Below the pieces are notes generated by a model, which did no database searches, had not been told where the DNA came from, and saw only the letters and a program-made list of their open reading frames with translations. Positions 12,135 to 62,229 of a stretch of 64,000 nucleotides of DNA are shown here, piece after piece. Position 1 is the first letter of the stretch. Every line of letters starts with the position of its first letter. The stretch is from an uncultured Methanosarcinales archaeon (lineage in GTDB: Archaea > Nanobdellota > Nanobdellia > Woesearchaeales > GW2011-AR4): the NCBI GenBank assembly GCA_964396095.1, contig CAYNCK010000075.1, forward strand, positions 8,626 to 72,625, given 5' to 3'. The position numbers and the translations under genes were made by a program.

Positions 12135-12178
12135 TACTAACAGATAAATTATTAAAGAAGAGCAAACTAATTGAATAG

Positions 12179-12934: not shown

Positions 12935-12969
12935 ACATTTATAAACCAATATTCTATATTTATTTGTAT

Positions 12970-14208: not shown

Positions 14209-14209
14209 A

Positions 14210-15046
14210 ATGAATTCTGCAAAAGCATTTGCACCTGCAAATATAAGCTGCATTTTCGGCATTTACAGCCACAAAAATCCAAGATGGATGGGCTCTTACG
14301 GATTGGGGTTTACTATAAATAAAGGCGTTGTTGCAGAAACATCAAAATCAAAAAAAACAGAGATTTTTTTCAATAATGCCCATATAAATTTCCCGACAGT
14401 TAAAAGCGTAATTAAAAGATTAAACGTTAAAACCATAACCATCAGTATAAAAACTAAACTTCCGCTTGGCTGCGGCTTTGGGCTAAGCGGAGCAAGCGCA
14501 TTGGCAACCGCTTACGCATTGAACAAATTATTAAAACTGAAAAAATCAAATAAGGAATTAGCTATCATAGCCCATACCGCAGAAGTGGAAAACAAAACAG
14601 GATTGGGTGATGTGGTGAATCAATTTTACGGGGGCTGCTGCCTAAAGCTAAGGCCAAGCTCTCATTTTATTGTCAAAAAGCTCCCATTAAATAATGCTGA
14701 TGTTTACTGCAGGCACTTCAGCAAAATATCCACTAAATCAGTAATTACCAATCCTAAGTTAAAAAATAACATCAACAAATCTGCATCAAAATGGCTAAAT
14801 AAAATCGAGATAATGGTAAAATCCCATAAAAATATAAAATTTAAGGAATTAATAGAAATTTCAGGAGGATTTGCAGTTGAAAGCAGACTAATGAAAAATA
14901 AAAGAGTAATAAAAATTATTAAAAGTATCAAAAAAAATAATGGAAATGCCTCAATGATAATGCTCGGCAATGCAGTTTTCAGCGACATGCCATTCAAAGG
15001 CGCAGGTAAATTCAAAATATCAGAAACAGGAGCGCATTTGATATGA
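14210..15046 (+). CDS. GHMP-family kinase, probably archaeal pantoate kinase (PoK).
   Basis: GHMP motif LPLGCGFGLSGASALATAYA. It sits between coaBC and a putative PPS gene in a CoA cluster. Archaea phosphorylate pantoate (COG1829) instead of using PanK. Confidence 0.6.
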   Translation: MNSAKAFAPANISCIFGIYSHKNPRWMGSYGLGFTINKGVVAETSKSKKTEIFFNNAHINFPTVKSVIKRLNVKTITISIKTKLPLGCGFGLSGASALATAYALNKLLKLKKSNKELAIIAHTAEVENKTGLGDVVNQFYGGCCLKLRPSSHFIVKKLPLNNADVYCRHFSKISTKSVITNPKLKNNINKSASKWLNKIEIMVKSHKNIKFKELIEISGGFAVESRLMKNKRVIKIIKSIKKNNGNASMIMLGNAVFSDMPFKGAGKFKISETGAHLI

Positions 15047-15780
15047 ATATTCCTAAATCACATCCAAGGTATGCTTCATTAAAAACAAGGGAATTGGTAG
15101 TTGTTGGAATAAAAGAGGGTGTAACATCAATTGACGGGCTTATTTCGCAGGGAAGGGGCGAAGCATTTGATTATCTTCTCGGGGAAAAAACCAATGATTT
15201 TGCTAAAAAATCAGTTGATAGTTCTGCTGCCCTCTTGCTGTTGGCAAAGCATCCGGTTATTTCAGTAAACGGAAATGCAGCTGCACTGGTCCCAAAAGAG
15301 CTGGCAGAATTGTCAAATATTCTTGATGCGCCTCTGGAAGTTAATATTTTCCATCCATCCTCCCAAAGGGAAATAAAAATAAAAAAATATTTGTTAAAGC
15401 ATGGTGCAAAAAAAATTTTGCTGCAGGACAAAAGATATAAAATAAAACATCTTGAATCAAACAGAAAATACGCCAATCCTGATGGGATTTTAAAGGCTGA
15501 CGTTGTTTTTGTTCCTCTTGAGGACGGTGACCGGGCAGAGGCCCTAATCAAAAATGGAAAAAAAGTCATAACAATAGACTTAAACCCATTGTCAAGGACA
15601 GCGCAAAAATCTACTATAGCAATTGTTGACAATATTATAAGAGCAATGCCGCTGCTGCTAAATCAAATTAAAAAATTCAGGAAATTAAAATTGACGGAAA
15701 AACATCTTGAAGCCATATATAAACATCACAATAACAAAAAAAGGCTTGCATTGGCAGTTAAAGCTATTAAAAAATTATAG
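15043..15780 (+). CDS. Putative 4-phosphopantoate--beta-alanine ligase (archaeal phosphopantothenate synthetase).
   Basis: 245 aa, translationally coupled to the GHMP kinase through a 4-nt overlap. Its size and position fit COG1701 PPS. This call rests on context, not a motif. Confidence 0.5.
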   Translation: MNIPKSHPRYASLKTRELVVVGIKEGVTSIDGLISQGRGEAFDYLLGEKTNDFAKKSVDSSAALLLLAKHPVISVNGNAAALVPKELAELSNILDAPLEVNIFHPSSQREIKIKKYLLKHGAKKILLQDKRYKIKHLESNRKYANPDGILKADVVFVPLEDGDRAEALIKNGKKVITIDLNPLSRTAQKSTIAIVDNIIRAMPLLLNQIKKFRKLKLTEKHLEAIYKHHNNKKRLALAVKAIKKL

Positions 15781-23846: not shown

Positions 23847-25736
23847 TCAAATCACATTCACATTTAAAGTTTCGATTGTTTCATCTGTCCCGTCGCTTAC
23901 ATGAACCTTTACTTCCTTGGTTCCTTTTGTCGTGAAAACCCTCTGGAGGTATTGCGAAGCTTTGTATTTCTCGAAAATGCCGAAGTCCCATGTGTAAGTT
24001 AAACTATCGCCATCATCATCAATTGCCTTCACATACATAAGAACGGGCTTGTTGGCATTTGCAACCACGCTTTTAGTTGAATTTGTTATCCGCGGGGGGT
24101 TGTTTTTATATGACAATTCTATTTTTGCAATTTGCTTTGCCTCTAATTTTCCGTCGCTGGCTGCAAAAACAAGCTCATATTTTTTAGTCTCGCCCTTTTT
24201 AGTTGTGTTAAAAGGTGTCCAGAAAAAAGAATTCCCCTTCAAAGAAGAGCCTTTAGGCGGGTTTTCAATTGAATAATTTATGCTGTCACCGTCAGGATCG
24301 TGCGCATCAAGCAATATAACAATTTCATCATTGTCCTTGGATTTTATATCTTTTATTTTTTCAAGTACAGGTGCCCTGTTTATGTGATTGATTGTCACTT
24401 TTGTTGCTTTTGAGGTTTCCAAAATACCATCGCTTGCAGTAACTTTAATTTCATATATCCCAGCATCGCCGAATTTGGACTTGTAATTGTCTGAGTTTAA
24501 AAATCCCGAATAGGCTATTTTAACTTTATCGCCATCCAAGTCATAAGCATTTGGAATTATTTTAAGTGTATCGCCTTCATTTATGGCTATTGGCTGTATG
24601 TCATCTATAAAAGGGGCCCTGTTTAGGTCTTCAACTGTTATAACCACATTCTGCACAATCTTTTTGTCTTTAGACATTGCTGCAAACTGGATGTAAAAGC
24701 TCTTGCTTAAAGTGTTAAATTTGGATATAAGCCTGTCGACAAATCCCTTTTTCCTGACTGCGTCATAGCTGGGCTTCCATGTGAAAATATTTCCTTCCAA
24801 GCTTGCCCCTTCAGGAAGATTGTCTGCTGAATAAGTTATTTCATCGCCGTCAGGGTCATTTGCCTCAAGAGCAATTTTCAGCTCTTCATTTTCCTTGATA
24901 ACTTTATTGGACAGCTTTTCGAAAACCAGCGGCCTGTCAATATTATTAACAGTTACCTTTACAATTTCGTCCTTGGCGAAGCCTTTGCCTTCTGCATGAA
25001 TCCGGATATCGTAAATGCCCGAATCATCAAAAGTTGTTTTCCACTCATTTTTCGTTCCTAGCGGCTCTGCGATTGAATAAGTTAATCCATATTTTACAAA
25101 ATCAGGAAGTTCCAGCTTTGCAATCTCGTTCTCGTTTACTGCAACATCCTTAATGCCATCAAGCATGGCTTCAACATCAACGTTTTCAACATTGATTGAC
25201 CATTCTTTTTTTGTTTCTTTTTTACCGTCAGAAGCTATAAAAATTATTTTATGGTCTCCTGAATCCTTGTAGCCTGTGATGTATGTGAATGTGCTTTCTT
25301 CCCCCAATTTCCTGCCGTCAACAAGCCATTCATAAGATATTTCATCATTATTCACATCACTTGCATTCACTTCAAAATCAATTGACCCTGTTTCCTTTAT
25401 TGTGATTTTATCTTCTTGCGGGGCATAGGAATCTATCTTCGGGCTTTCCTCCTTCTTTTTTACCACAATCAAAATATCTTTTGATACGCTTGTAGTGCCG
25501 TCAGAAACAGTGATTGTTGTCTTGTATTCCCCTGAATCGCCGTAATTTGTCTGCCACTCGCCGTTCTCGTTTAAAGGAAATCCGTATGTGGTAACGAGCT
25601 TGTCTGCGTCGGGATCTGTAACTTTTGGCTGGAGGCTTACTTTTTCAGTTTCATTTACAGCAAAGGTTGAAATAGAATTTGCAAAATAGGGCAAGATCAA
25701 AAATATAATTAAAAATAATAAAATCTTTTTATTCAT
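23847..25736 (-). CDS. Large secreted protein with tandem Ig-like (PKD/cadherin-like) repeats.
   Basis: Signal peptide MNKKILLFLIIFLILPYFANS. Repeat units of ~95 aa contain EWQTNYGDSG.Y...V.ASDG and DPDGD.I.YS. It is paralogous to the adjacent 25776-27509 gene. Confidence 0.6.
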   Translation of the reverse strand: MNKKILLFLIIFLILPYFANSISTFAVNETEKVSLQPKVTDPDADKLVTTYGFPLNENGEWQTNYGDSGEYKTTITVSDGTTSVSKDILIVVKKKEESPKIDSYAPQEDKITIKETGSIDFEVNASDVNNDEISYEWLVDGRKLGEESTFTYITGYKDSGDHKIIFIASDGKKETKKEWSINVENVDVEAMLDGIKDVAVNENEIAKLELPDFVKYGLTYSIAEPLGTKNEWKTTFDDSGIYDIRIHAEGKGFAKDEIVKVTVNNIDRPLVFEKLSNKVIKENEELKIALEANDPDGDEITYSADNLPEGASLEGNIFTWKPSYDAVRKKGFVDRLISKFNTLSKSFYIQFAAMSKDKKIVQNVVITVEDLNRAPFIDDIQPIAINEGDTLKIIPNAYDLDGDKVKIAYSGFLNSDNYKSKFGDAGIYEIKVTASDGILETSKATKVTINHINRAPVLEKIKDIKSKDNDEIVILLDAHDPDGDSINYSIENPPKGSSLKGNSFFWTPFNTTKKGETKKYELVFAASDGKLEAKQIAKIELSYKNNPPRITNSTKSVVANANKPVLMYVKAIDDDGDSLTYTWDFGIFEKYKASQYLQRVFTTKGTKEVKVHVSDGTDETIETLNVNVI

Positions 25737-25775: not shown

Positions 25776-27509
25776 TCAGCTTTTCTGCACAATGTCAGTT
25801 ATCACAGGAGGCCTGTTTACATTCTCAACACTGACGCTGAATGTTTGCTCTGACTTGTCCTTCCAGTCAGCTGCAGTGGCAGTAACCTGGTATGTGCCCG
25901 CGCTGTCATAGTCCGTCTGCCATGTGAAAACATTGCCTTCCTGCTTGAACCTGCTGTCGCTGATTGAATAGTTGATTGGGTCTTGGTCATCGTCAGTTGC
26001 AAGAGCCGTTATAACAATCTTATCAGTTTCTTTTGCTTTTATGTCTGAGATTTTTTGCAGAACAGGCTTCCTGTTGACATTCTTAACATCAACGGACCAA
26101 ATCTTGCTCACGCTTGACAACCCGTCTGATACATCAGCCTTTACTGTGTGAGTGCCTGCATTATCGTAAGTTGTCTGGTAAGTGTATTTGCTTTCAGTTC
26201 CGGTCTCCTTGCCGTCGAGCTTCCAGTTATAAGTTAATGGGTCCTTGTTAAGGTCGCTTGCGTCAACGTTGAAATCTATTGATTGCATTTCATCTATTGC
26301 CAATCCGCTTTCAATCGGCTTTGCTGCATCAATTTTTGGAGGCTCTTCCTTCTTGTTGACAATTATCAAGACTTCCCTCGAGGTTGTTGATTCGCTGTCA
26401 GATGCTGTTACTGTAACAGTGTACTGGCCGGAATCGCCGTAATTTGTCTGCCATTCCCCCTTCTCGCTGAGTGGGGACGTAAATGTAAAAGCAAGATTTG
26501 TGTTTTTGTCAGGGTCCTCTGCCTTTGGAACTAGGCTGACAAGGTCTGTTTCCTGCACAACAACTACAATGGGCTTTTCCTTTGCCTTTTCTCCAGTCTG
26601 TTCTTCTGAAGAATGGGTAATCACTTTAGGCTTTATGCCGTTATCATTTTCAGCAGATTGTTCTGTATGTGTTTTTTCAGTATCGCTGCTTTTGTTTTCC
26701 ATCACTACTTCACCTGTAGTTTTAGTTTCATTCATTGCCTGAACAGGCTCTTCATATTCAATAAAAACATCCTGTTCCGGGAATCCAGCATTAATATGGT
26801 TTGTAAATTTGATTGGAGCTTCAAGGACTGTTTTGTTTTCCGTCATAAGTGGCACAAGGAAAAATAATTGAACATGGCTGTTGGCTCCAAAATCTCCAGG
26901 AGAAGCCCCGTAAGTTTTTCCGTCACTGTGGTATGCAAGCGCGATTAGTGCTGCATTTTCCTTTGTGCTTGCCTCCAAAGGCTTCAATCCCACGCTAAAA
27001 TATCCGTTTCCCTTGTCATCTGCATTGAAAATATTGTCAGAACCATCCTCTTTTCCGCAAGGAATATCAACCATTTTTGGCTCAGGAGGGAATGTAACCC
27101 TTGAGCACCACAATGTATAAACTCCGTTGGGGATAAGCTTTTTGAATGATAAGTCAAGCATAGCATTTTCTGCATCTTTTACGCTATAAATTCCTATTCC
27201 TGACGCATCAAGCCATTGTCCTAATGCGAATCCAAGAGATTTTCCCTTGTCAAATGGCCCAAGTGGATTTTGCCCGGCCTTAAAAGGGTCGTGCTGGACT
27301 GCGACTGCACTGGAATAAACAGTCTTGCCAAGTGTTTCAGGGCTTTTTGCTGTCTCGCCCTCAACCCTTATGACTTTTGTGTATTCATTTTCCTTTTTCA
27401 TCTCTTTCTGAGGCCCTGTGCCGTAAAGAGTCTGATAAACCTCGCAGCTGCTTAGCAAGAAAACTGAAATTATCAATAAAACGATAAAAGATTTTGTTTT
27501 AAAATTCAT
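25776..27509 (-). CDS. Secreted lipoprotein-like surface protein with an N-terminal globular domain, a Thr/Glu-rich linker and C-terminal Ig-like (PKD/cadherin-like) repeats.
   Basis: Signal with lipobox-like LLSSC. A ~230-aa N-terminal domain of unknown function. The C-terminal repeats share EWQTNYGDSGQY / DDDQDPINYS motifs with the neighbouring gene. Confidence 0.6.
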   Translation of the reverse strand: MNFKTKSFIVLLIISVFLLSSCEVYQTLYGTGPQKEMKKENEYTKVIRVEGETAKSPETLGKTVYSSAVAVQHDPFKAGQNPLGPFDKGKSLGFALGQWLDASGIGIYSVKDAENAMLDLSFKKLIPNGVYTLWCSRVTFPPEPKMVDIPCGKEDGSDNIFNADDKGNGYFSVGLKPLEASTKENAALIALAYHSDGKTYGASPGDFGANSHVQLFFLVPLMTENKTVLEAPIKFTNHINAGFPEQDVFIEYEEPVQAMNETKTTGEVVMENKSSDTEKTHTEQSAENDNGIKPKVITHSSEEQTGEKAKEKPIVVVVQETDLVSLVPKAEDPDKNTNLAFTFTSPLSEKGEWQTNYGDSGQYTVTVTASDSESTTSREVLIIVNKKEEPPKIDAAKPIESGLAIDEMQSIDFNVDASDLNKDPLTYNWKLDGKETGTESKYTYQTTYDNAGTHTVKADVSDGLSSVSKIWSVDVKNVNRKPVLQKISDIKAKETDKIVITALATDDDQDPINYSISDSRFKQEGNVFTWQTDYDSAGTYQVTATAADWKDKSEQTFSVSVENVNRPPVITDIVQKS

Positions 27510-27740: not shown

Positions 27741-28541
27741 ATGGAAAAGAGAAAACTCAAAATGAAAGCATTAAGCAAGGAAGAGATAAATCATATTTGT
27801 AGTTTATATGAGACTTATGGAAACGTCAGAAAAGTTTCTTATGCAAGTTCAAAATCAATAGGTGTGGTTCATAAATATCTTTCTAAGCATGAACTGATAA
27901 AAAAGCAGAATACTGTAAATAGAATCTCCAATGATGATGAACGATTGGTAGGCACTTATGTTGGCCTTTGGCTTGGCGACGGGACGCAGTACATAGATAG
28001 ACATAGATTTACTATCAAGATATGTTCAAACAAAAGAGATGTTCTGTTAAACAAGTTTATTCAGGAGCTCATTTTTCGGATATTCGGAAAGAAGACAAGC
28101 CTTATTAAAGAGAAAAATAGTAACAGGGCATATATAAAATTCCATTCAAAATTTATTTTTAATTTCATAAAAAGTTATGCAAGACATTCTGGCATTAAAA
28201 CTTATTCTGTAAGTCTTAGGAAGGATGTTGATGACTACCGGACAAAATTTCTTGAAGGATGCTTACTTGGATTGACGTTAAGCGATGGGTATCTTAAAAA
28301 GAATTTTGCATTTTCTACAGCATCACAAGACTTAGGATTTAATGTCTTTCAAATATTGAAGATATTTGGGTATAATCCTTATTTAAATACGCAAAAAAGA
28401 ATCAATAAAGCTGATTCCTTTAAAGTATCTTTGAGTTCATCTCAAAGCTTAAGATTAAGCAAATTCCTGGACAATATTATTATCTCTCTTGGTTTTAATT
28501 ACTCATTTCAAGAATTAAAGTATGGGCCCGGTGTGATTTGA
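27741..28541 (+). mobile_element. Free-standing double-motif LAGLIDADG homing endonuclease gene.
   Basis: Two LAGLIDADG motifs (LVGTYVGLWLGDGTQ and FLEGCLLGLTLSDGYL) and an N-terminal HTH-like segment. The 3' end of the ORF overlaps the 3' end of tRNA-Ile by 19 nt on the opposite strand. Confidence 0.75.
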
Positions 28542-28626
28542 ACGCACGACCTTCGCCTCTAGGAAAGCAAAAGCATTCTTTTGCTCATATCAGAGCGACG
28601 CTCTAACCAGGCTGAGCTACGGGCCC
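28523..28626 (-). tRNA. tRNA-Ile(GAU) with a canonical ~29-nt intron after position 37.
   Basis: Acceptor GGGCCCG/CGGGCCC + A. D-arm GCUC-AGCCUGGUUA-GAGC. Anticodon stem UCGCU/GGCGA with loop CU-GAU-A, then intron UGAGCAAAAGAAUGCUUUUGCUUUCCUAG. T-arm GUGCG-UUCAAAU-CACAC with one mismatch. Confidence 0.75.
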
Positions 28627-29191: not shown

Positions 29192-30304
29192 TTAATGCCT
29201 GACAAAATTGCAGGCTCTCCTTACCAGTTCATCAAGATTCATTTCATTATACTTGGGATTTCTTATATTTTCCAATGCTGCAGATTTCATCACGTCTGCG
29301 GCGCTTTTTTCTCCTGTTTGTTCAAGCATCATTGCATAGGACAAGAAAGCCGCTTCCGGTTTTATTTGCTGCACTAAAGAAGGATCATGTTTTCCGTCTG
29401 GACCATACCATTTGTCAGGAGCAGTCCCGTGAATTGGCTCAAACATCGACGGAAATTTCCCGGTAGGATTTATGTTTCCTGATACAGCAGTTCCAATACC
29501 ACCCTGAAGAATTGCGCCAATGTCGGTCATTATATCACCAAACATATTTTCAGTTATAACCACGTTAAATTGCTTGGGATTAACAAGCATCTGCATTCCA
29601 AAATTATCAACGTGCATATATTTTACATCAATATCATTTCTTTTAGAGTATTCCTCAAAAACCCTTTGCCATGTCGATGCGGCATAAGCCAAAACATTTG
29701 TTTTGAAAACTATATGCACAGTCGGTTTATCTCCGTGCTGTCTTGCTAATGCCCTCTCAACTGCATACTCCATCAGTCTTTTGACACCCCTGTAAGAACA
29801 TTTCATAACCTGATATGCAATTTCATCATCTGTTCCTTTGTTTTCAACACTTCCGATGTTGGCGTACAATCCTTCAGAGTTCTCCCTTAATATTTCAAAA
29901 TTTATATCTTTGGAAGTTTTTCCGACCAGAACAGAAGGTACACCTTCTGGCAAAACAACAGGCCTTAGATTAACATACTGGTCAAATTCCTGCCTGATAT
30001 TTAATAAAATTCCAATTTCAAGAACTCCTGGTTTTATTTTGCTTGGATCACCGACTGCCCCTAAAAAAATCTGGTCATATCCTCTTAACCCATCTAGATC
30101 GTCTGTGTCTAGCGCCTTGATCCCTCTTTGAAGAAAATAATCAGCATTGAAAGGAAATCTTGTATGAACTATTCGTTTTGTTAATCTACCGCTTACTGCC
30201 TCGCTTAATTCAAGCACAGCATTTGTGACTGTTATCCCATTTAAGTCGCCCGGTATGACTGCAATGTTATGATAATCTTTTGTCATTTTGTTAAATCCCA
30301 GCAA
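29192..30304 (-). CDS. leuB: Isopropylmalate / homoisocitrate / isocitrate dehydrogenase family enzyme (LeuB-like).
   Basis: NMFGDIMTDIGAILQGGIGTAVSGNI matches the beta-decarboxylating dehydrogenase signature. It is adjacent to the leuC and leuD homologues. Confidence 0.8.
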   Translation of the reverse strand: MLGFNKMTKDYHNIAVIPGDLNGITVTNAVLELSEAVSGRLTKRIVHTRFPFNADYFLQRGIKALDTDDLDGLRGYDQIFLGAVGDPSKIKPGVLEIGILLNIRQEFDQYVNLRPVVLPEGVPSVLVGKTSKDINFEILRENSEGLYANIGSVENKGTDDEIAYQVMKCSYRGVKRLMEYAVERALARQHGDKPTVHIVFKTNVLAYAASTWQRVFEEYSKRNDIDVKYMHVDNFGMQMLVNPKQFNVVITENMFGDIMTDIGAILQGGIGTAVSGNINPTGKFPSMFEPIHGTAPDKWYGPDGKHDPSLVQQIKPEAAFLSYAMMLEQTGEKSAADVMKSAALENIRNPKYNEMNLDELVRRACNFVRH

Positions 30305-30307
30305 AAA

Positions 30308-30916
30308 TCAGTTATTGGCAAAGCCATTCATGTAAGGCAGTCCAATGGCTACCCTTTTTGTCTTATCGGAATTTGCCTTCAGCATGCTTAAGGCATCCCA
30401 TTTTCCCTCAAGCAGTGCAAGCCTCGATGATTCCGGAATATTTATAGGAACAGCTACTTGTCCAAAAGCAAGAGTTTTTGTTCCAAGATCAATAGTATAC
30501 TCTGTACCAGGATTATTTTTTGTATATTCCATCAATTCAGAAATCACAGACGAAGTTGCAGTCACTGCCGGAATTCCCAAAGACCTGCAGTTTCCTTCAA
30601 ATATTGCAGCGTAAGATTCGCCGACAATTGCCCGGATTCCATAATGCATAATTGCTTGTGGAGCGGTTTCTCTTGAAGAGCCAGAGCCGAAATTCTTTTC
30701 AACAATCATAATTGATGACCCCTTATACCTCGAATCATTAAGCGGATGATTTGCATCAGCTTTTCTTGCATCACGAAAAAGGTAATTAACTGCATTGGCA
30801 AATGTTGTTTCTGTCATTGCATCTGCCGGAGTAATCTGGTCTGTATCAATATTATCCCCTTTTATTGGAATTGCTGTTCCTGACACTCTTAAAATTTTTA
30901 AATCATCAATTGACAT
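30308..30916 (-). CDS. leuD: 3-isopropylmalate/(homo)aconitate dehydratase small subunit.
   Basis: Aconitase swivel domain of 202 aa with GDNIDTDQITPA. Confidence 0.8.
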   Translation of the reverse strand: MSIDDLKILRVSGTAIPIKGDNIDTDQITPADAMTETTFANAVNYLFRDARKADANHPLNDSRYKGSSIMIVEKNFGSGSSRETAPQAIMHYGIRAIVGESYAAIFEGNCRSLGIPAVTATSSVISELMEYTKNNPGTEYTIDLGTKTLAFGQVAVPINIPESSRLALLEGKWDALSMLKANSDKTKRVAIGLPYMNGFANN

Positions 30917-30922
30917 TTTGCC

Positions 30923-32350
30923 TCATAGTAATTCTCTTACATCATTAACATAACCTTTTACGGCTGCAGCTGCAACCATTGCAGGGCTCATCAAAAGAGT
31001 TCTTCCCTGCGGGCTTCCCTGCCTGCCAACGAAGTTCCTGTTTGAAGACGATGCACTTATTTGGTCACCGATAAGCTTGTCAGGGTTCATTGCAAGGCAC
31101 ATTGAGCAGCCAGCCTCGCGCCACTCTGCTCCTGCTCCCTTGAAAATCCTGTCAAGGCCTTCCTTCTCTGCCTGAATTTTTACAGAATTTGAGCCTGGTA
31201 CAACTAATGCTGTTACTCCATCTGCAACTCCATATATCTCAAAAATTTTTGCCGCTTCTCTCAAATCCGAAATCCTGCTGTTTGTGCATGAGCCTATGAA
31301 TGCAACACTTATTGGAGTTCCATAAATTGGATCTCCAGGTGTGAATCTCATATGGTCATAAGCTTTCTTTGCTGAGCCTCTTTCGCTTTCGGCAAGTTCC
31401 TCAAGCTGCGGCATTCTTTGGCTAATAGCGATCGATTGCCCAGGATTAGTGCCCCAAGTGACCATAGGTTCCAAAGTTATTGCGTTAAATTTAACGTGAT
31501 CATCATATTGTGCATTGCTATCTGAAGCAATAGATTTCCAATATCTTATTGCTCTTTCAAAATTATTTCCCTTTGGAGAAAATTTTCTCCCATCAAGATA
31601 ATCAAAAGTATTTTCGTCGGGATTTACATATCCAACCAAGGCACCTCCCTCAATGCTCATGTTGCATAAAGTCATCCTTTGCTCCATGCTCATGTTTTTA
31701 ATTGTACTTCCATTAAATTCGTAAGCAAATCCTTTGCCGCCCGATACACCAAGTCCGTTTATTATTGCAAGAACTACATCTTTTGCATAAACTCCCTTAG
31801 ATAATGCTCCATCAAAATCTATCCTCCTTACATTAAGCTTGCTGACAGGGAGTGTTTGTGTTTCAAGAATATAAGCAATTTCAGTAGAACCAATCCCAAA
31901 AGCCAATGAGCCAAATGCGCCATGCGTGCTTGTGTGACTATCTCCGCATGCAATTGTCATTCCGGGTTGAGTTAATCCTAACTCAGGTCCAATTACATGC
32001 ACAATTCCGTTTAATCCAGATTCTGGACCAAAAAAAGTTATTCCGTATTTATCAGCATTTTTTTCCAAAGCCCTCATCAGGCTCTCTGCCTTAAAATCTG
32101 CAAATGGCCTCTGAAGGCTTTTGGTTGGAATCATATGATCTGCTGTTGCGTAAGTTCTGTCAGGAAACAAAACTTTTCCATTCCTTCCTCTTAACATTTC
32201 AAATGCCGGAGAACTCGTAACATCATGCACTAGATGCAATCCTATAATGAGCTGATATTGTCCAGTCGGTAATTTATCAACAACATGAGAATCAAATACT
32301 TTATCGTACAAAGTGCCTTGCGACATATTTACTCGGTAGTGGCAATTCAT
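30923..32350 (-). CDS. leuC: 3-isopropylmalate/(homo)aconitate dehydratase large subunit.
   Basis: Aconitase catalytic motifs GDSHTSTHGAFGSLAFGIGSTE and the Cys ligands (GSCTNSR, CSMC). Confidence 0.85.
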   Translation of the reverse strand: MNCHYRVNMSQGTLYDKVFDSHVVDKLPTGQYQLIIGLHLVHDVTSSPAFEMLRGRNGKVLFPDRTYATADHMIPTKSLQRPFADFKAESLMRALEKNADKYGITFFGPESGLNGIVHVIGPELGLTQPGMTIACGDSHTSTHGAFGSLAFGIGSTEIAYILETQTLPVSKLNVRRIDFDGALSKGVYAKDVVLAIINGLGVSGGKGFAYEFNGSTIKNMSMEQRMTLCNMSIEGGALVGYVNPDENTFDYLDGRKFSPKGNNFERAIRYWKSIASDSNAQYDDHVKFNAITLEPMVTWGTNPGQSIAISQRMPQLEELAESERGSAKKAYDHMRFTPGDPIYGTPISVAFIGSCTNSRISDLREAAKIFEIYGVADGVTALVVPGSNSVKIQAEKEGLDRIFKGAGAEWREAGCSMCLAMNPDKLIGDQISASSSNRNFVGRQGSPQGRTLLMSPAMVAAAAVKGYVNDVRELL

Positions 32351-33871: not shown

Positions 33872-34143
33872 TTTTTAGCTTCTTTCATGAAATCATCAAA
33901 ATCCATTTCTATAAATTCCCCTTTCTCGTACCTCTTGTATGCCTCTTCAGTCCTTCTTGCAAACTCCAAGTCTTCAGCAAGAGACTTACTCATCTCTGAA
34001 GCTTTTTTTAGTATAATCTGCTTCCCGTTTTTAATTAATACAAGTTTTTCTCCTTCTTTGATATCTTCCCTCATCTCCAAGGGTATTACAATCTGGCCTT
34101 TTGAGCTCATCTTGGTTATGCTTATATCCATTTCAATCACCAA
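33865..34143 (-). CDS. AbrB/MazE/SpoVT-type antitoxin.
   Basis: MSSKGQIVIPLEMREDIKEGEKLVLIKNGKQIILKK is a swapped-hairpin beta-barrel motif. It lies immediately upstream of, and overlaps, the RelE gene. Confidence 0.65.
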   Translation of the reverse strand: MVIEMDISITKMSSKGQIVIPLEMREDIKEGEKLVLIKNGKQIILKKASEMSKSLAEDLEFARRTEEAYKRYEKGEFIEMDFDDFMKEAKKW

Positions 34144-34235
34144 GTAAGATTAGTCTTACTTGTATATAAATGTTTTTATTTGGAAAAGCTTTGAGATAGA
34201 AAGATTTATTAAATAGATAATCAATTTATTTATTA

Positions 34236-34367
34236 TGGCAGAGACAGTTACAATAACAAAGAGAGAGTATCAAAAGCTTAAAAAAAAGGAAGAAATAGAC
34301 ACGGAGCTCCTCAAGGACATAGCTTCAGGAATGAAAGATATACTAAGAGGAAAAATAAATGAAGTTT
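34236..34367 (+). CDS. Small 43-aa ORF, possibly an orphan antitoxin-like protein.
   Basis: MAETVTITKREYQKLKKKEEIDTELLKDIASGMKDILRGKINEV. It is convergent with, and overlaps by 2 nt, a RelE-like gene. Confidence 0.25.
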
Positions 34368-34680
34368 AAAGATTTTTCAGAATTTTATCAAGCTCTTCTT
34401 TATAGACATCAAGATTTGATTTTATAATGTCAATAACCTGCTGCTGTGTTTTCTTGCCGCTGATTGTTATTAAGAATACAACCTGATGTGAATCATACAC
34501 CAAGAAATACATCCTATTGCCGTTAAATTTCTTTTCTCTGAAGAAATCATAGCCAAGCGGCCTTCCCTGATATGGGTTTTGCTTTAGCGACTGCTCAAAA
34601 TTACTTACTCTTTTTTGCTCCTGGCTGCTTAACTTATCCAGCTTCTTGCCATACCAGTCTGAGCGGAATACACGGAACAT
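34366..34680 (-). CDS. RelE/ParE-like toxin (second copy).
   Basis: 104 aa. ...NPYQGRPLGYDFFREKKFNGNRMYFLVYDSHQVVFLITISGKK fits the RelE/ParE core fold pattern. No cognate antitoxin lies directly upstream on the same strand. Confidence 0.55.
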   Translation of the reverse strand: MFRVFRSDWYGKKLDKLSSQEQKRVSNFEQSLKQNPYQGRPLGYDFFREKKFNGNRMYFLVYDSHQVVFLITISGKKTQQQVIDIIKSNLDVYKEELDKILKNL

Positions 34681-34852
34681 AAACAGGATAAGGTATTTGA
34701 TTGTATTTAAGGATTGTGGGAAAATATTTTAAAAATTATTATATGCATTCCTTTTCCAGAAATTTTTCATTTTGAGGTTTGGGATTTTGTATCTTTGATT
34801 ATTTATGGAAGATTTAAAGGTTTTGTATATGATTTTAGTAAAAAATAGAATT

Positions 34853-35692
34853 CTAAGATTTCATCTTCTTCCATTTCTTTAAGGTTTTTATAAATTTACT
34901 TTTTAAAATGAAATAATATTTAGATAACTTCTCAAATGTACCTATGATTGTCAATAAAAATAATGATGATGAGATTACCCAGTTATTTTTTATAAAATCT
35001 ATAATTACATAATGAATGGGTTTATAATATTTTAAATTAATATAAAAATCTTTATTGGACTTGAAGTTCCAACTTAAAATACTTTGCTTATCTTCGAAAA
35101 ATAAAGTTGCATTATTTGGAAAGATTTGGGTGGGGTAATAATTAGTTGGTAAGTGAATTATAATTTTATTATAAGTTTCATCACCACCCAATTTTTGGGG
35201 AAATATATTTAAATTTCTTACGTTGTTAATAATACCTAATTTTTTATAATTGTCTTTAGATATATCGTTATAATCTTGTCTTGATATTGTTTCAATCTTA
35301 TTATTGCCTTTATTTTTATAAAAAATCCAATAAGAGAATGTTTTATTCTCTTCTATGAAACCATACCCTTCTACAAATTCTTTACACTGAATTCCAAAGC
35401 AATCTAAATTTTTTTTAACTAATTCTTCTGTCAATGGATTTAATTCTTCATTATTTGCATAAATCTTAACTATTTTTTTAAGGAAATTTTCTTTTGAAGA
35501 ATAAAGATAGAATATTCCAAAAGGATCTCCGATTGGGGAATCTGTTTCAATATAATCAATTTTTTTTACCAGTATATAATCATCAAATAAAGTAATATCC
35601 AAATGAGAAAATTTAGTTTGCTGAGCATATGAATTAATAAGTTGGGAATTATAAATAAAAATGATAATTATTAAAAATATTAATTTTTTCAT
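34853..35692 (-). CDS. Very AT-rich secreted protein with a signal peptide and a C-terminal TM anchor. Unknown function.
   Basis: Signal MKKLIFLIIIIFIYNSQLINSYAQQ. C-terminal hydrophobic helix plus KKWKKMKS tail. The composition is dominated by K/N/I/Y/F. Its start abuts the stop of the radical SAM gene (35692/35693). Confidence 0.45.
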   Translation of the reverse strand: MKKLIFLIIIIFIYNSQLINSYAQQTKFSHLDITLFDDYILVKKIDYIETDSPIGDPFGIFYLYSSKENFLKKIVKIYANNEELNPLTEELVKKNLDCFGIQCKEFVEGYGFIEENKTFSYWIFYKNKGNNKIETISRQDYNDISKDNYKKLGIINNVRNLNIFPQKLGGDETYNKIIIHLPTNYYPTQIFPNNATLFFEDKQSILSWNFKSNKDFYINLKYYKPIHYVIIDFIKNNWVISSSLFLLTIIGTFEKLSKYYFILKSKFIKTLKKWKKMKS

Positions 35693-37180
35693 TTAAACCT
35701 CCACTTCCCTCTTAACCGAAACCTTCCCAATAATTGACCTTAACATATGACCTGTGATTTCTAAATCGTAGAATTTCTTTAATTCAAGTCTTCCATTCAC
35801 GCCGACAATTATCGGATATGTTCCAAACTGCCTGCAGAATGTTGTGTTCCCGTCATAAATCTCTGCATAGCAGTTTGTCAGGATTGTTCCTGATGGAATC
35901 ACTCTCTGCAGCATTGGCCAGTCTATCTTTTGCCTTATTTCATTTCTCCATTTCCAGTACATTTTTTTATTTTTCCTCAAAAACTTATCTTTGCCTTCGT
36001 TAAAAAGCGAAGTTCCTTCAAATATTGCAACCTGGCGGATATTAATCCTCCTAAGCATAAGCCCTTCATCATAAATTCTAGTCAGCCATTTCATGTTCTC
36101 TTCATGTGTTTTCTTTGTTTCATTCCTTAAACCAAATATTATGTTGATGCCGGGCAAAAATCTTGGCATTCCATCCTCTCCCCTCTCGCTTCCGTATTCA
36201 TTCAGTATTTTAACAGCTTCATAAGCGATTGAAGGAGGAGTATTCAGTGTATTCGCTTTCACAACTTCCAAATCAAAGCTTTCAACACCAAAAGCAGCAA
36301 TATTTCCTGAAGTGCAGTATTTCACAATTGCTTTTGTTATGGAAAAATTATTTTTCTTGTCCAAAACAACTTTTACCGGATTTACATTATCAATATGAAT
36401 AACTTTAATGTCAGGACATTCTTTCCTTATGTCTTTCAGCAATTCAGCAGCATAAGGCAAAGTGTAAAAGCAAGTCTGCTTTCCCAATCTAAAATACCTA
36501 GCGCCCAATTTATAGAATTCAATGACTTCATTCAAAACATCTTCTCTCTCACGAAACTCAACTTTATTCTTGATAGGCTCTGTGCAAAACGAGCATTTTC
36601 CAATATCGCATCCGTGCCCTGTCTCAATCTCAATCATCCTGTAATCAGGAATCTGTTTTATTATAGAAGCGCCTTTCAAGGAATATTCCTTGACATCTTT
36701 ATACAAAAAGTTAAACATTGAATAATCAACTTTGTCAAAAACAGATAAATCAGCTTTCTCGTAAAATTTTCCGCCAAACAGCTGCGTTCCAAAAACAGCA
36801 GGGCCTGTCAAAATCTTCTCGCAATTCAAATCCTTAATCATGGGAATAATTTCATGCAAAGTCCCGGGCACAGCTGATAAATACTTACCAGGCACATGGA
36901 CTCCAAGAACAACAATCAAAGTTTCAGTTTCTTCAAGAATTTTCGGGATATTTTTGTGATTTAAAGTAATATTGTAAGTCATAATATCTGTCTTCTGGGA
37001 TTTTTTAATAACTTTAATTTGCCCATTGTGTTTTTTCCATGACCTTAAATCATCTATACTAATATAGTACACTTCTTCATTCAGGTAGCCTGCAATATAC
37101 CTCGGATACGTTCCAAGATACGGAGGAACTCCAAGTCCTGCAGGTTCGTCTGTGTAGCAGTCTAAAATTGTATATTTCAT
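35693..37180 (-). CDS. Radical SAM domain protein with an N-terminal Rossmann/B12-binding-like domain. The cluster motif spacing is Cx4Cx2C.
   Basis: The N-terminal ~190 aa is a flavodoxin-like alpha/beta region. The Cys triad GHGCDIGKCSFCTEP sits at the start of a TIM-barrel-like region, with a glycine-rich SAM-binding segment downstream. 495 aa. Confidence 0.65.
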   Translation of the reverse strand: MKYTILDCYTDEPAGLGVPPYLGTYPRYIAGYLNEEVYYISIDDLRSWKKHNGQIKVIKKSQKTDIMTYNITLNHKNIPKILEETETLIVVLGVHVPGKYLSAVPGTLHEIIPMIKDLNCEKILTGPAVFGTQLFGGKFYEKADLSVFDKVDYSMFNFLYKDVKEYSLKGASIIKQIPDYRMIEIETGHGCDIGKCSFCTEPIKNKVEFREREDVLNEVIEFYKLGARYFRLGKQTCFYTLPYAAELLKDIRKECPDIKVIHIDNVNPVKVVLDKKNNFSITKAIVKYCTSGNIAAFGVESFDLEVVKANTLNTPPSIAYEAVKILNEYGSERGEDGMPRFLPGINIIFGLRNETKKTHEENMKWLTRIYDEGLMLRRINIRQVAIFEGTSLFNEGKDKFLRKNKKMYWKWRNEIRQKIDWPMLQRVIPSGTILTNCYAEIYDGNTTFCRQFGTYPIIVGVNGRLELKKFYDLEITGHMLRSIIGKVSVKREVEV

Positions 37181-43983: not shown

Positions 43984-44736
43984 TTACAAAAGTTTTCTAA
44001 CTAGACTATCATATTGTGTATTTAATTTTTTTTGGGTCATGTCCAGAAAATCTGCAACACCATTATATGGGGAGAAATTAATTTGTAAACCTTTTGGAGA
44101 TTTATCGCTTATTCTTTGCCTCAAGGCTTCAACAGTACTATCTATCCTCTTTTTCAGCACATATGCTTCAATAACATCACCATATCTTCCCAGCTTTCCT
44201 TCGCCGACAAAAGATGGAATTTTTATATTCTTACTTTTTGCTTCTTCAAATATATCAAGAATTCTTTCATAATCTGAAAGTGCTTTTAGTAAATTATACT
44301 GCTTAACATATTCCCCAATATCAGCGTGAGATACAACAGGACTTTTTATTCCAGTTAGATTCATAGGCTCATTCTTTCCTATAATGTTATATGTTGCCAA
44401 ACTAGTTAATATTTGAGCCTGCCTGGCCAATGCAACTATTTCTGTCCCCCTAAAATAACCTGAGTTTAAATCCCTAGAATTAAGCCCTAGATAAGATCTT
44501 TTTGATTTATTTACAGCTTCATCAAGGCACTCGTATGCTTCCCGGTATATTTCATTTGTTTTTCCTTTATTCAGTTTTTCTATTGATTCGCGAATTACCT
44601 CAATTATTCCATCATCAGAATTATGCTTTGAAGCTGCAATGGTTTCCAAAGGCCTTAATGTTTTAGATGCTGCTAAACCAAGGATTCCTTTTCCGCTAAA
44701 TTCTAAAAATCCCCTTCGTGATAATTTTTCATCCAT
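43984..44736 (-). CDS. Hypothetical secreted protein with a twin-arginine (Tat) signal peptide.
   Basis: N-terminus MDEKLSRRGFLEFSGKGILGLAASKTL fits the S/T-R-R-x-F-L-K Tat consensus followed by a hydrophobic region and AxA-like site. Confidence 0.5.
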   Translation of the reverse strand: MDEKLSRRGFLEFSGKGILGLAASKTLRPLETIAASKHNSDDGIIEVIRESIEKLNKGKTNEIYREAYECLDEAVNKSKRSYLGLNSRDLNSGYFRGTEIVALARQAQILTSLATYNIIGKNEPMNLTGIKSPVVSHADIGEYVKQYNLLKALSDYERILDIFEEAKSKNIKIPSFVGEGKLGRYGDVIEAYVLKKRIDSTVEALRQRISDKSPKGLQINFSPYNGVADFLDMTQKKLNTQYDSLVRKLL

Positions 44737-45522: not shown

Positions 45523-45586
45523 TTATTAATATTTTATAGTAGTAACATTAAAAACCTTTATAAGCATTAAACCATAAGTTTACCTG

Positions 45587-46660
45587 ATGTCAAGAATAAA
45601 TAATCAAGTAACTAGGATTGATAATTTTTATCCTAATATGTCAACAAGGGAGATTGCCAGAAGTTTAGGTATTGCTGATTGTACTGCACATGCTATTAAA
45701 CATTATGGTTCCACTAGGCAATATAAGGATTATCTGGCTCAGCAAAAGGGATTTGATTCACATTTAGATTATAGGAATTCTCAGCGGAAACTAAAATGGG
45801 AAGAAATTCAGAAACTGGCAACAGAATATTATGAAGTTAAGGAAAGTAGTGGCTTAGGATCTCTATGCTCAAACCGGAGCGATAGGCAAAATGAAATTAT
45901 AGAAAAAATCCTGCATTTGGCAAAACCAATTTTTTATAAAATAGGGCATAGGTTACAAGGCTTTGGCCAGCCGGTAAGCATACAGGGGCGTGAAGTTTCT
46001 CTTAGGGGATTTGGAGGTTCCTATTCGGTAGACGACCTTGCCCAAGAGGCTGGCTTATATGTTTTTAGAAAATTCCATTTGTACGACCCCCATAACAGAA
46101 GCATTAGTACCTGGCTTTATGCTTCTATAATTGGAAGCATGTTAAATAGAGGGGGAAATTTTGGTTCTGTTCTTACAATTACTGAACATGCTGTTAGAAA
46201 AGGAAAAAAAATATTACGAACAAAAATGACTTTGGAAGATTTTATAGAACCAGCAAGCAAAATAAATACCACAGGAAGAGATGCAAAAAAAATAACCTCA
46301 GCAGCTCTGCTTTATATGTCATTAACCAGCCAATATTCGGAGATTTCTGGGATAGATGAATCTCAAATTGATTATACTGCGCTTGAAACAATCACTGAAA
46401 ATACACCAAAATCACCGTTAGATGAATTACAAATGTTAGAAAAAATTGGATTAGTCTCTGTAGTCCTAAAAAGTTTGCCAAAAAAAGAACAGCAAGTAAT
46501 TAAGATGATATTTGGATTTGAAGGTGACAAAGAAATGACAATGGAAGAAATTGGTGATAGCCTTAATATTAGTAGAACCAATTTATTTAGAATTAAAAAT
46601 AGGGCACTTGAAAAGTTAAGAAATTTTTTAATGAGCAAATTGGGAACAGAATTTCTCTAA
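45587..46660 (+). CDS. Sigma-70/ECF-family sigma factor homologue with an N-terminal extension carrying an extra HTH.
   Basis: Region 2 is VDDLAQEAGLYVFRKFHLYDPHNRSISTWLYASIIGSML (consensus eDl.QetFl.vwr....yd.....f.tWLy.Iarn). Region 4 is LPKKEQQVIKMIFGFEGDKEMTMEEIGDSLNISRTNLFRIKNRALEKLRNFL (consensus Lp.reR.V..l.y..g.s..EIa..lgis.gtVksrl.RA...Lr). The first ~150 aa contain an additional HTH-like stretch (MSTREIARSLGIADCTAHAIKHYG). Confidence 0.7.
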   Translation: MSRINNQVTRIDNFYPNMSTREIARSLGIADCTAHAIKHYGSTRQYKDYLAQQKGFDSHLDYRNSQRKLKWEEIQKLATEYYEVKESSGLGSLCSNRSDRQNEIIEKILHLAKPIFYKIGHRLQGFGQPVSIQGREVSLRGFGGSYSVDDLAQEAGLYVFRKFHLYDPHNRSISTWLYASIIGSMLNRGGNFGSVLTITEHAVRKGKKILRTKMTLEDFIEPASKINTTGRDAKKITSAALLYMSLTSQYSEISGIDESQIDYTALETITENTPKSPLDELQMLEKIGLVSVVLKSLPKKEQQVIKMIFGFEGDKEMTMEEIGDSLNISRTNLFRIKNRALEKLRNFLMSKLGTEFL

Positions 46661-48780
46661 ATAAACAACGGCACAAGCACAAGTGTTATTGTCGACAATA
46701 GCTTAATCAAGACGTGCAATGAAGGTCCTGCGCAATCTTTAAATGGATCTCCAACAGTATCTCCTGTTACAGCTGCCTTATGAGCTTCAGATCCTTTTCC
46801 TCCGTAATTACCATCTTCAATGAACTTCTTTGCATTATCCCAAGCTCCTCCGCTTGTGTTCATCAGCAAAGCCATCAAAATACCAGTCATTGTCCCTACC
46901 ATCAAAAATGCGCCGGCAGCTTCATATTTTAAAGTCATTCCAACAATAATTGTTGTAACAACAACAAGCAATCCCGGCAAAACCATTTTTTTCAATGAAG
47001 CTTTTACGCAAATGTCAACAACTTTTGCATAATCAGGCTTTGATTTTCCGGTCATGATTCCTTTATTTGTTTTCCATTGCCGCCTTACTTCATTTACAAT
47101 TGAATAAGCAGCATCTCCGACAGCCTTTATTGCTAATGAACTGAAAAGAAAGATAAGCATTGCTCCTAAAAATCCTCCAACAAAAACGTGAATCTTTGAA
47201 AGGTCAATTCCAACTGATTGTATAGGGACTCCGCCTTTTGCATTTATGTATTTTACAACATCATCAAGATAAGCGCTGAATAATAAAAATGCAGCAAGCG
47301 CAGCACTTCCAACAGCATAACCTTTTGTCAAAGCTTTTGTTGTGTTTCCGACAGCATCCAATCTGTCTGTCCTTTTTCTTACGGCTTCTGGAGCTTTTGA
47401 CATCTCTGCAATTCCGCCTGCATTGTCCGTTATAGGTCCAAAATTGTCCATAGCAAGAATAAAAGCAGCTGTTCCAAGCATGCCCATTGTTGCCATTGCC
47501 GTTCCATATAATCCGCCATGATCAAACCCGCTTGATTTGCCTAACCAAAATGAAATTAGAAGAGCGAGCGACAAAACAATTACAGGAGCAGCTGTTGCTT
47601 TCATTCCGACAGCAAAGCCCGTAATAATATTAGTTCCATGCCCTGTTTGTGATGCCTTTGCAATATCCTTAACAGGCTTGTATTTGTGGTCAGTGTAATA
47701 AACTGTTATTAAAACAATCAAGATACTGGTAATTATTCCGACAACTCCCGCAAAAAAGAACCACATGTTATCTTTCAGCAGCCATTTTACTGCAAAATAA
47801 AATCCAGCTGCAGCTAATACACTAGTAATTAAATAACCCCTGTTTAATGCATTCATTGGATCCTGATTTTCATTTTTAAGTTTTGTAAACATTACTCCGA
47901 TTATGCTTGCAATTAATCCAAATGCCCTTGCAACAAGAGGAAACAAAATTCCATTCAATCCAAACTCCTTATACAAAGCTACTCCCAAAATCATAGCTCC
48001 GATATTTTCGGCTGCAGTGCTTTCAAACAAATCAGCGCCTCTGCCTGCACAGTCTCCGACATTATCTCCAACCAAGTCAGCAATAACAGCAGGATTTCTT
48101 GGATCATCTTCCGGAATTCCCTTTTCAACTTTTCCAACCAAGTCTGAACCCACATCAGCAGCTTTTGTATAAATTCCCCCCCCTAATTGAGCAAACAAAG
48201 CAACAAATGATGCTCCAAAACCGTATCCTACAATTAAAAAGGGAATTTCTTTTGCAGGAGCCCCGAGACTTGAGTTAAATAAGTATATTAAAGAAACTCC
48301 AAGCAAAGACATTGAAACAATCACAATTCCGGTTACTGCGCCTCCCCTTAATGCAGTTACAAATGCTTCGCTTATGCTTCTTCTTGCAGCACTAGATGTT
48401 CTTATATTAGTCCTTATAGAAACCCACATTCCGACAATCCCTGCCAATGCAGAGCTGAACGCACCAAACAAAAATGCAACTGAAGTTTTCCATCCAAGCG
48501 ATTGCTGGTTTAAGAATGCATAAACGCCATAAATAATAACTGCAAGTGCAATTGTAAGAATTCCGATTGTCGTGTACTGCCTCTTGACAAAAGCCTCTGC
48601 GCCAATCTTTATTGCATTTGAAACATCAAGCATTGCAGGTGTCCCTGTGTCTTTCTTTAGAATTTGTCTTGTTAAATAGGCTGCAAACAGCAATGCCAGA
48701 ATGCTTATTGAAATCACTAAAGTCAATAAATCCATTTTATTTGGGAAAATAAAGGGGTTTATAAAGGTTTTGAGAAACAA
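46657..48780 (-). CDS. hppA: Membrane-bound H+/Na+-translocating pyrophosphatase.
   Basis: GGGIYTKAADVGSDLVGKVE, DNVGDCAGRGADLFES, and 707 aa with ~16 TM helices. Confidence 0.9.
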   Translation of the reverse strand: MFLKTFINPFIFPNKMDLLTLVISISILALLFAAYLTRQILKKDTGTPAMLDVSNAIKIGAEAFVKRQYTTIGILTIALAVIIYGVYAFLNQQSLGWKTSVAFLFGAFSSALAGIVGMWVSIRTNIRTSSAARRSISEAFVTALRGGAVTGIVIVSMSLLGVSLIYLFNSSLGAPAKEIPFLIVGYGFGASFVALFAQLGGGIYTKAADVGSDLVGKVEKGIPEDDPRNPAVIADLVGDNVGDCAGRGADLFESTAAENIGAMILGVALYKEFGLNGILFPLVARAFGLIASIIGVMFTKLKNENQDPMNALNRGYLITSVLAAAGFYFAVKWLLKDNMWFFFAGVVGIITSILIVLITVYYTDHKYKPVKDIAKASQTGHGTNIITGFAVGMKATAAPVIVLSLALLISFWLGKSSGFDHGGLYGTAMATMGMLGTAAFILAMDNFGPITDNAGGIAEMSKAPEAVRKRTDRLDAVGNTTKALTKGYAVGSAALAAFLLFSAYLDDVVKYINAKGGVPIQSVGIDLSKIHVFVGGFLGAMLIFLFSSLAIKAVGDAAYSIVNEVRRQWKTNKGIMTGKSKPDYAKVVDICVKASLKKMVLPGLLVVVTTIIVGMTLKYEAAGAFLMVGTMTGILMALLMNTSGGAWDNAKKFIEDGNYGGKGSEAHKAAVTGDTVGDPFKDCAGPSLHVLIKLLSTITLVLVPLFI

Positions 48781-61986: not shown

Positions 61987-62058
61987 AAGTTAAAAGATAA
62001 AGCAATAATAAATAGTAAGTATTTAGTAGGTATATATAAAGATTGCCATATGAGAAAA

Positions 62059-62154
62059 CGCGCCGGGGAGGATTCGAACCCCCGGCCTAAAGGTTAGGAA
62101 CCTTTCGCTCTATTTGCTCGAAAATAATCTTCCTCCAAGCTGAGCTACCGGCGC
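62059..62154 (-). tRNA. tRNA-Arg(CCU) with a ~22-nt intron in the D-loop (non-canonical position).
   Basis: Acceptor GCGCCGG/CCGGCGC + G. D-stem GCUC...GAGC enclosing a 31-nt loop (AGCUUGG-AGGAAGAUUAUUUUCGAGCAAA-UA). Anticodon arm AAAGG-UUCCUAA-CCUUU. T-arm GGGGG-UUCGAAU-CCUCC. Confidence 0.75.
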
Positions 62155-62229
62155 ATAAACTTATCAGAAATCAATTGCTTTTAAAAATGTTTATTTTTTA
62201 TGTTACACATGTTTTTATCCACTTATTTT

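Follow-up and report, generated by a model that had tools for sequence, protein, structure and literature searches.

The 64,000-nucleotide stretch analysed here (the window; contig CAYNCK010000075.1 of GenBank assembly GCA_964396095.1, from an uncultured archaeon) encodes a sigma-70-family homologue at 45587..46660 on the forward strand, a complete ATG-started open reading frame (ORF) of 357 amino acids in the ORF listing. A sequence-only reading of the locus had recognized sigma-70 regions 2 and 4 in this protein and proposed a search with hidden Markov models (HMMs), which was significant for both. Pfam Sigma70_r4 (PF04545) matched residues 293–346 with 54.7 bits against a gathering threshold of 24.1, and Sigma70_r2 (PF04542) matched residues 143–188 with 24.4 bits against 24.0, which is marginal by itself. 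The NCBIfam superfamily model TIGR02937 scored 66.2 bits (cutoff 42.9) across residues 142–347, and the best PDB sequence matches, RpoS (E 5e-9) and SigA, aligned without a break from residue ~144 to ~349, about 205 residues. These results, together with the gene surroundings described below, confirmed that the ORF encodes a bacterial-type sigma-70 relative within a genuine archaeal chromosome. Judged by its sequence, the gene is a divergent member of a sigma-70-like family of DPANN archaea.

AlphaFold2, run on an alignment of 57 family sequences, gave a model with a mean predicted local distance difference test score (pLDDT) of 83.7, exceeding 90 for 181 residues; its secondary structure was assigned by DSSP. 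The model has a predicted sigma2–sigma3–sigma4 fold, and a Foldseek search of the PDB returned full-length SigA, RpoS and RpoH chains with a probability of 1.0 over 260–340 aligned columns, SigA and RpoS being the best structural matches; the structure-prediction check suggested by the sequence-only reading thus agreed with the sigma assignment. Global TM-scores were low, an effect of the different placement of domains in the free model and in sigmas bound within a holoenzyme. Several features of the protein can be placed along the locus as follows.

45557..45564 (+): TATA-like box TTTATAAG, centred ~27 nucleotides before the ATG with an A-run upstream; read from the sequence
45587..45766 (+): residues 1–60, lineage-specific N-terminal extension with three short helices and a helix-turn-helix (HTH)-like motif (STREIARSLGIADCTAHAIKHY)
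45770..45961 (+): residues 62–125, family-specific 'N-module', with W71, Y81, G89, R97 and Q101 in conserved alignment columns
45798 (+): G in the window (TGG, conserved Trp71), A in the ERR4904393 assembly, giving a TAG stop
45962..46021 (+): residues 126–145, family-wide insertion between helices 2.1 and 2.2 with a beta-hairpin at 130–137 (DSSP, alignment)
46022..46183 (+): residues 146–199, regions 2.2–2.4, compared column by column with a canonical sigma and 55 family members
46184..46327 (+): residues 200–247, sigma3-like domain of three helices (200–212, 216–223 and 232–247), a stretch that the RpoS and SigA alignments traverse
46328..46414 (+): residues 248–276, acidic linker at the position of region 3.2, low confidence (pLDDT 50–65)
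46415..46642 (+): residues 277–352, sigma4 (regions 4.1 and 4.2, HTH), four helices, covered by the Pfam r4 match of 54.7 bits

The label of an extracytoplasmic function (ECF, group 4) sigma factor, which the sequence-only reading had offered, did not fit. ECF sigmas are ~170–200 amino acids long and consist of sigma2 and sigma4 only. The protein shares with them the TIGR02937 match and a weak Sigma70_r4_2 match, but it is not ECF-like because it has the sigma3-like domain that ECF sigmas lack; it also has an extended N-terminal sigma2 region and a length of 357 residues, and group 1/2 sigmas match it best by sequence and by profile. With bacterial group 1/2 sigmas (RpoD/SigA and RpoS) it has in common the order sigma2–sigma3–linker–sigma4, the DLxQE motif in helix 2.2 and the best matches by sequence, profile and structure. 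It departs from them in residing in a host with an archaeal RNA polymerase (RNAP), where a bacterial core enzyme is not to be expected, in its beta-hairpin insertion before helix 2.2 and in several sequence hallmarks: neither Pfam region 1.2 (PF00140) nor Sigma70_r3 (PF04539) matched the protein at E≤10, and its C-terminal end reads KLRNFLMS rather than KLRHPSRS.

The three short helices of the extension (residues 2–40) were modelled with low confidence (pLDDT 43–68 across the extension), and the HTH_24 and HTH_23 Pfam matches within residues 1–60 were sub-threshold (E 0.05–0.1). Residues 1–60 showed no homology to the N termini of other family members, and the N-terminal 144 residues had no match among PDB sequences. 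The N-module was modelled with a long helix (43–88) and a second one (99–123) at pLDDT 96–98, and from its position in the predicted fold we take it to be a diverged equivalent of regions 1.2/2.1. HMMER aligned part of residues 126–145 to SigA region 2.1 with low confidence, and the homology of this stretch is ambiguous. Region 2 helices were predicted at 148–165 (2.2) and 173–192 (2.3/2.4). An N-terminal extension of ~150 residues with an additional HTH had been described at this locus. An HTH-like motif is indeed present, but the size was overestimated: only ~60 residues are lineage-specific, and residues 62–145, the putative region 1.2/2.1 equivalent, are common to at least 56 protein clusters.

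We defined the family by an exhaustive HMMER search over 1.84 billion representative proteins, in which 2,977 matches had E≤1e-3 and 36 of them reached E≤1e-10. The closest non-self relative was 33% identical (E 1.6e-33). A word-indexed homologue search found almost none of the family (3 matches, then generic sigmas, then 4 matches) and was not used for its definition. About fifty of the top matches were proteins of 280–320 amino acids that aligned from query residue ~64–70 to ~350, and the alignments showed that the insertion before helix 2.2 is common to the family. The N-module has the consensus GWxxLxxLGxEYxxxVxxGxGxxxxNRSxRQxxIxNEI..PY...IA, which is absent from bacterial sigmas. An HMM of this module recognized 56 clusters out of the 149 best representative ones and not a single canonical bacterial sigma among those collected, so that the family comprises at least 56 clusters at 50% identity; the score of 64.4 bits for the protein studied here is not independent, since this protein was part of the HMM. 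At 90% identity, the protein clustered only with a fragment from Logan assembly ERR4904393 (P0001). Ten proteins of the window were queried by exact sequence: eight, this one among them, were recorded from one NCBI contig of 73,990 bp, and seven of the eight were sole members of their 90%-identity clusters; ATPase subunit B and LeuC were not matched. In a neighbour-joining tree of the 2.2–4.2 core, the phylogenetic check suggested by the sequence-only reading, all 59 family sequences fell into one clade together with two others, although on a short stem that is weighed below. The branch of the protein itself measured 0.438, against a family mean of 0.419.

All named family members belong to Woesearchaeota, Pacearchaeota or Nanoarchaeota. 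They include MDP3734339.1 (Nanoarchaeota), MBS3070804.1 (Pacearchaeota) and MBI2666068.1 (Woesearchaeota); further members are two Tara sequences from the 0.1–0.22 µm fraction and two contigs of Woesearchaeota metagenome-assembled genomes (MAGs; L095 and L048), in the first of which the family gene is adjoined, as on contig L086 below, by archaeal housekeeping genes, here ABCE1/RLI, NrdR and ribonucleotide reductase. A search of genome, viral and metagenome contigs with this protein alone gave no confirmed relative, and a degenerate DNA pattern for DDLVQEG...Y[DN]P, run over named genomes and followed by tblastn and blastp, led mostly to bacterial loci and to a handful of archaeal ones. One candidate (P0206) was rejected as a family member, having a bacterial context (bL27, DnaX) and no N-module.

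Another contig (L086) carries two tandem sigma-like paralogues of the family on the reverse strand (1418–2359 and 2411–3295), beside genes for ribosomal protein L24e, NDK and an M3 peptidase. Its bin carries the name 'uncultured Methanosarcinales archaeon'; the alternatives are a family that extends beyond DPANN and a mis-binned contig. More canonical sigma-like proteins without the N-module also occur: a Pacearchaeote protein of 295 amino acids (L001, 8001–8888) with regions 1.2, 2 and 4, encoded near TFS and CDC48, and Pacearchaeota/Woesearchaeota proteins of 264 (L096, 3588–4382) and 210 amino acids (L008, 5742–6374). Because such proteins exist beside the family, there are several sigma lineages in DPANN.

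To compare conservation residue by residue, we aligned 55 family members with one canonical sigma (P0003); Escherichia coli sigma-70 numbering was transferred through the conserved FSTYATWWIRQAITR motif. In bacteria, the helix 2.2 motif contacts the beta-prime clamp helices, and it is W433/W434, Q437 and T440 that pry apart and read the -10 element. The helix 2.2 motif is retained across the family: the D403 position is D or E in 54 of 55 members, L404 is present in 46, Q406 is Q or N in 40 and E407 is E or D in 40. The Y430 position is aromatic (F, W or Y) in 54 members, R or K occupies R441 in 37, and P453 is found in 41. The recognition helix of region 4.2 is also kept (R584 in 33, E585 in 35, R586 in 42, R588 in 40 and Q589 in 44), as is, in 22–25 members, the H-P-S-R of the primary-sigma tail KLRHPSRS. 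The W433/W434 dyad, Q437 and T440 are not conserved in the family. Searched against the PDB, the family profile had primary SigA as its best match. On this pattern, the family appears to derive from a group 1/2 sigma, with a coiled-coil-binding face and a -35-type DNA reader retained but not the melting apparatus.

By the same alignment, the protein encoded in the window is a further-diverged member of this family. It retains the core-binding motif (D150, L151, Q153 and E154) and has W176 at the Y430 position, and it carries A179, S180, G183 and L186 in place of W433/W434, Q437 and T440, so that the residues for recognizing and melting the -10 element are missing. The equivalents of R441, R451 and P453 are replaced by N187, T197 and T199, the last two standing where the family has the conserved R-x-P of region 2.4. 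The recognition helix reads R330, T331, N332, L333, F334 and R335, in contrast to the R-E-R-I-R-Q of the family and of primary sigmas.

The archaeal setting of the gene, which the sequence-only reading had pointed out, was upheld. Upstream, at a distance of 64 bp, an Rpp21/Rpr2 gene occupies the opposite strand. Downstream, a convergent gene for an H+-pyrophosphatase (hppA) shares 4 nucleotides (46657–46660) with the sigma-like gene at their stop codons, which leaves no space for a terminator between them. Farther neighbours encode CDP-archaeol synthase, two CDP-alcohol phosphatidyltransferases, RpiB, a Nudix protein and PGK, and the window also encodes A-type ATPase subunits A, B, C, D, E and I, Hel308, Orc1/Cdc6, deoxyhypusine synthase, an archaeal phosphopantothenate synthetase and a TrmB regulator, so that archaeal markers are spread through all 64 kb. 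Guanine–cytosine (GC) content is even across the window (34% in the genome), and the composition of the gene lies within the spread of 45 window genes (z -0.75 for GC, -1.7 for GC at third codon positions and -0.33 for synonymous-codon likelihood). An independent Logan assembly of the same organism (ERR4904393; L127) covers 45594–47147 with 1 mismatch in 1,554 nucleotides (99.94%) and spans the sigma/hppA junction. The contig is therefore not chimeric, having archaeal markers on both sides of the gene, uniform composition and independent support across this junction. The same native GC content and codon usage agree with the earlier remark that no mobile-element signature is present: repeats around the gene were at chance level, no integrase or phage genes were found near it, its unannotated neighbours had no PHROG phage-family match, and the 64-kb window held no second sigma-like gene.

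The window has further features of its own. A tRNA gene at 28523–28626 (-) carries a 30-nucleotide insertion (intron) directly after the anticodon. A second tRNA-like gene lies at 62058–62155 (-). ARAGORN assigned it a 4-base 'anticodon', and its Rfam score of 26.9 bits falls just short of the threshold of 29 bits; it probably represents a tRNA whose intron sits at an atypical place. A coenzyme A cluster at 10164–15780 encodes ketopantoate hydroxymethyltransferase, a TrmB-family regulator, a Dfp flavoprotein, a GHMP-type kinase and the archaeal phosphopantothenate synthetase; with leuB/C/D at 29192–32350, it forms a biosynthetic set richer than is typical of very reduced DPANN genomes. Two adjacent proteins of 629 and 577 amino acids (23847–25736 and 25776–27509, reverse strand), with weak matches to M36 metallopeptidase C-terminal regions and tandem-95/LapB repeats, are probably paralogous surface or secreted proteins. 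A protein of 250 amino acids without a family match (43984–44736, reverse strand) has a twin-arginine-like N terminus (SRRGFLEFSGKGILGLAAS), which suggests export by the twin-arginine translocation (Tat) pathway. GC content reaches a local minimum of 0.284 at 34001–36000, against ~0.36 elsewhere, overlapping an ORF of 279 codons without a family match beside a radical-S-adenosylmethionine-like ORF of 495 codons.

From its position, we infer that TTTATAAG is an archaeal promoter element, which would give rise to a leaderless or near-leaderless mRNA. Consistent with this, seven of eight sigma-like genes at related loci have TATA-like boxes 23–34 nucleotides before the ATG; the second gene of the tandem pair on L086 has no clear box. 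A scan for sigma-70-type promoters found 56 sites against 42.4 ± 5.9 expected, mostly inside genes, and is uninformative in such AT-rich DNA. The single mismatch to the independent assembly, a G>A that turns the nearly invariant Trp71 codon into TAG, may be a population null allele or an assembly error.

Sigma factors are regarded as the hallmark of bacterial initiation, as TBP and TFB are of initiation in archaea and eukaryotes. Sigma-70 genes (fam00359) have nonetheless been described in DPANN genomes as 'particularly prevalent in Woesearchaeota' (Castelle et al. 2021, Front Microbiol, PMC8204110). These authors excluded mis-binning, found no anti-sigma factors and called the mechanism unclear, TBP, TFB and TFE being present (PMC8204110). 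The NCBI annotation of the homologues in Woesearchaeota, Pacearchaeota and Nanoarchaeota MAGs is 'sigma-70 family RNA polymerase sigma factor'. The uniqueness implied by the sequence-only reading is therefore lost: the family has at least 56 clusters at 50% identity, its named members are all DPANN, and DPANN homologues were published in 2021 (PMC8204110). The locus is an unusually diverged new member of a published group and not a discovery by itself. Our family is defined by the N-module and need not coincide exactly with fam00359. The protein shares the N-module, the hairpin insertion and regions 2–4 with MDP3734339.1, MBS3070804.1 and MBI2666068.1; unlike these homologues, it is at most 33% identical to any relative, has the additional HTH-like extension of ~60 amino acids and lacks the R-x-P of region 2.4, the R-E-R-I-R-Q helix and the KLRHPSRS tail.

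How did a protein of this kind come to lie in an archaeal chromosome? As had been proposed, this bacterial-type sigma-70 protein in a truly archaeal, non-chimeric chromosome is ultimately of horizontal origin. Nothing was found in favour of a chimeric or mis-binned contig and a really bacterial gene, a thought prompted solely by the oddity of a sigma factor in an archaeon; it is effectively refuted by the Rpp21 gene 64 bp upstream, the archaeal markers over all 64 kb, the uniform composition and the independent assembly across the sigma/hppA junction; relatives adjoin L24e, ABCE1 and TFS in other archaeal contigs, and the published survey excluded mis-binning for the DPANN sigma-70 family (PMC8204110). 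A virus-, plasmid- or defence-island-borne sigma, such as part of an integrated element or an MzaA-like defence system, is effectively excluded as well. PHROG sigma-factor families do match the protein (phrog_351, E 6.5e-19), as does NCBIfam MzaA weakly (47.6 bits), but these matches reflect generic sigma homology, the MzaA cutoff being 800 bits. No integrase, repeats or phage genes lie nearby, the composition is native, none of 2.9 million viral contigs held a relative, BFVD matches were generic phage sigmas only, and the neighbours had no PHROG match; the virus or plasmid derivation that the sequence-only reading had allowed for was thus dropped. We likewise rejected a recent or mobile-element transfer, all named family members being Woesearchaeota, Pacearchaeota or Nanoarchaeota.

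The explanation that fits best overall, to which we give about an even chance, is an ancient acquisition followed by diversification within DPANN, with a present role in transcription regulation. A bacterial sigma of group 1/2 type (RpoD/RpoS-like), acquired long ago, would be the ancestor of the family and would later have diversified within Woesearchaeota, Pacearchaeota and Nanoarchaeota. The gene would be expressed from an archaeal TATA-type promoter, and its product most likely acts as a DNA-binding transcription regulator alongside the usual TBP/TFB/TFE apparatus and would not melt promoters as canonical sigmas do. It could bind DNA through the sigma4 HTH and/or, in this protein perhaps, the N-terminal HTH, and the surface of helix 2.2 may dock on a coiled-coil partner, plausibly the RNAP clamp coiled-coil. 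Archaeal regulators do use sigma4-type HTH domains, as indicated by the PDB match to 8hno_A and a weak Pfam HTH_10 match in the protein; such sigma4/LuxR-type regulators have no sigma2 or sigma3, unlike the protein discussed here. Several results weigh against this explanation. Most canonical DNA contacts of regions 4.2 (T331, N332, F334 and R335) and 2.4 (T197 and T199) are lost here, which leaves it uncertain whether this member binds DNA even through its sigma4 domain. The TAG at the conserved W71 could point to a dispensable gene. With a short stem (0.017) for the family clade, its monophyly rests mainly on the N-module. Neither a conserved gene neighbour nor a target motif came to light; in the synteny comparison that had been proposed, none of ten window neighbours had a homologue beside a sigma-like gene in the related loci fetched. 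The literature searched contained no functional study of DPANN sigma-70 homologues.

Two other roles compete with that of an accessory regulator. All multisubunit RNAPs share a conserved clamp coiled-coil, and the protein might be a true archaeal initiation factor, with sigma2 on the Rpo1N (A') clamp coiled-coil and sigma4 on the Rpo2 flap/wall, replacing or supplementing TFB/TFE at a subset of promoters. The family-wide retention of the helix 2.2 core-binding motif, the R584, E585, R586, R588 and Q589 positions of region 4.2 kept in 33–44 of 55 members, the full sigma2–sigma3–linker–sigma4 architecture of the model and the lack of TFE-beta in DPANN (PMC7289017) would all suit such a role. We nevertheless consider it unlikely, as the tryptophan dyad and the -12/-10 reading residues for promoter melting are not conserved, TBP, TFB and TFE are present in these genomes, the archaeal flap may not accept sigma4, and the DNA-reading residues of this protein are degenerate. 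We are just as sceptical of the corresponding statement for the DPANN family at large, namely that it binds archaeal RNAP via helix 2.2 and the clamp coiled-coil as an alternative or auxiliary initiation factor. Slightly less probable again is the reading that a sigma gene obtained by horizontal transfer persists here as a remnant, decaying or dispensable and without current function in this organism. Its loss of residues of 2.4 and 4.2 that the family conserves, the near-identical population variant with TAG at W71, its lone position at 90% identity and the distance to the nearest relative (33% identity) would fit decay. Against it stand an ORF intact over 357 codons in a genome of 34% GC, where stops easily appear, well-preserved hydrophobic cores in all three domains (181 residues with pLDDT above 90), a TATA box in a good position and a branch length typical of the family.

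Under an accessory regulatory role or any other, a sigma-derived family has been retained and has diversified in ultra-small archaea, with its core-binding helix and its -35-reading helix kept. It may be asked whether a sigma can function together with an archaeal polymerase or whether nothing more than an ordinary DNA-binding regulator is left of it. The pattern of residues that the family has kept, that the family has lost and that are additionally lost here provides concrete, testable hypotheses, and for the biological question the better-conserved family members are at least as good test subjects as this locus. If the family does act in initiation, nature would have combined promoter recognition of the bacterial sigma type with that of the archaeal TBP/TFB type, which would be remarkable.
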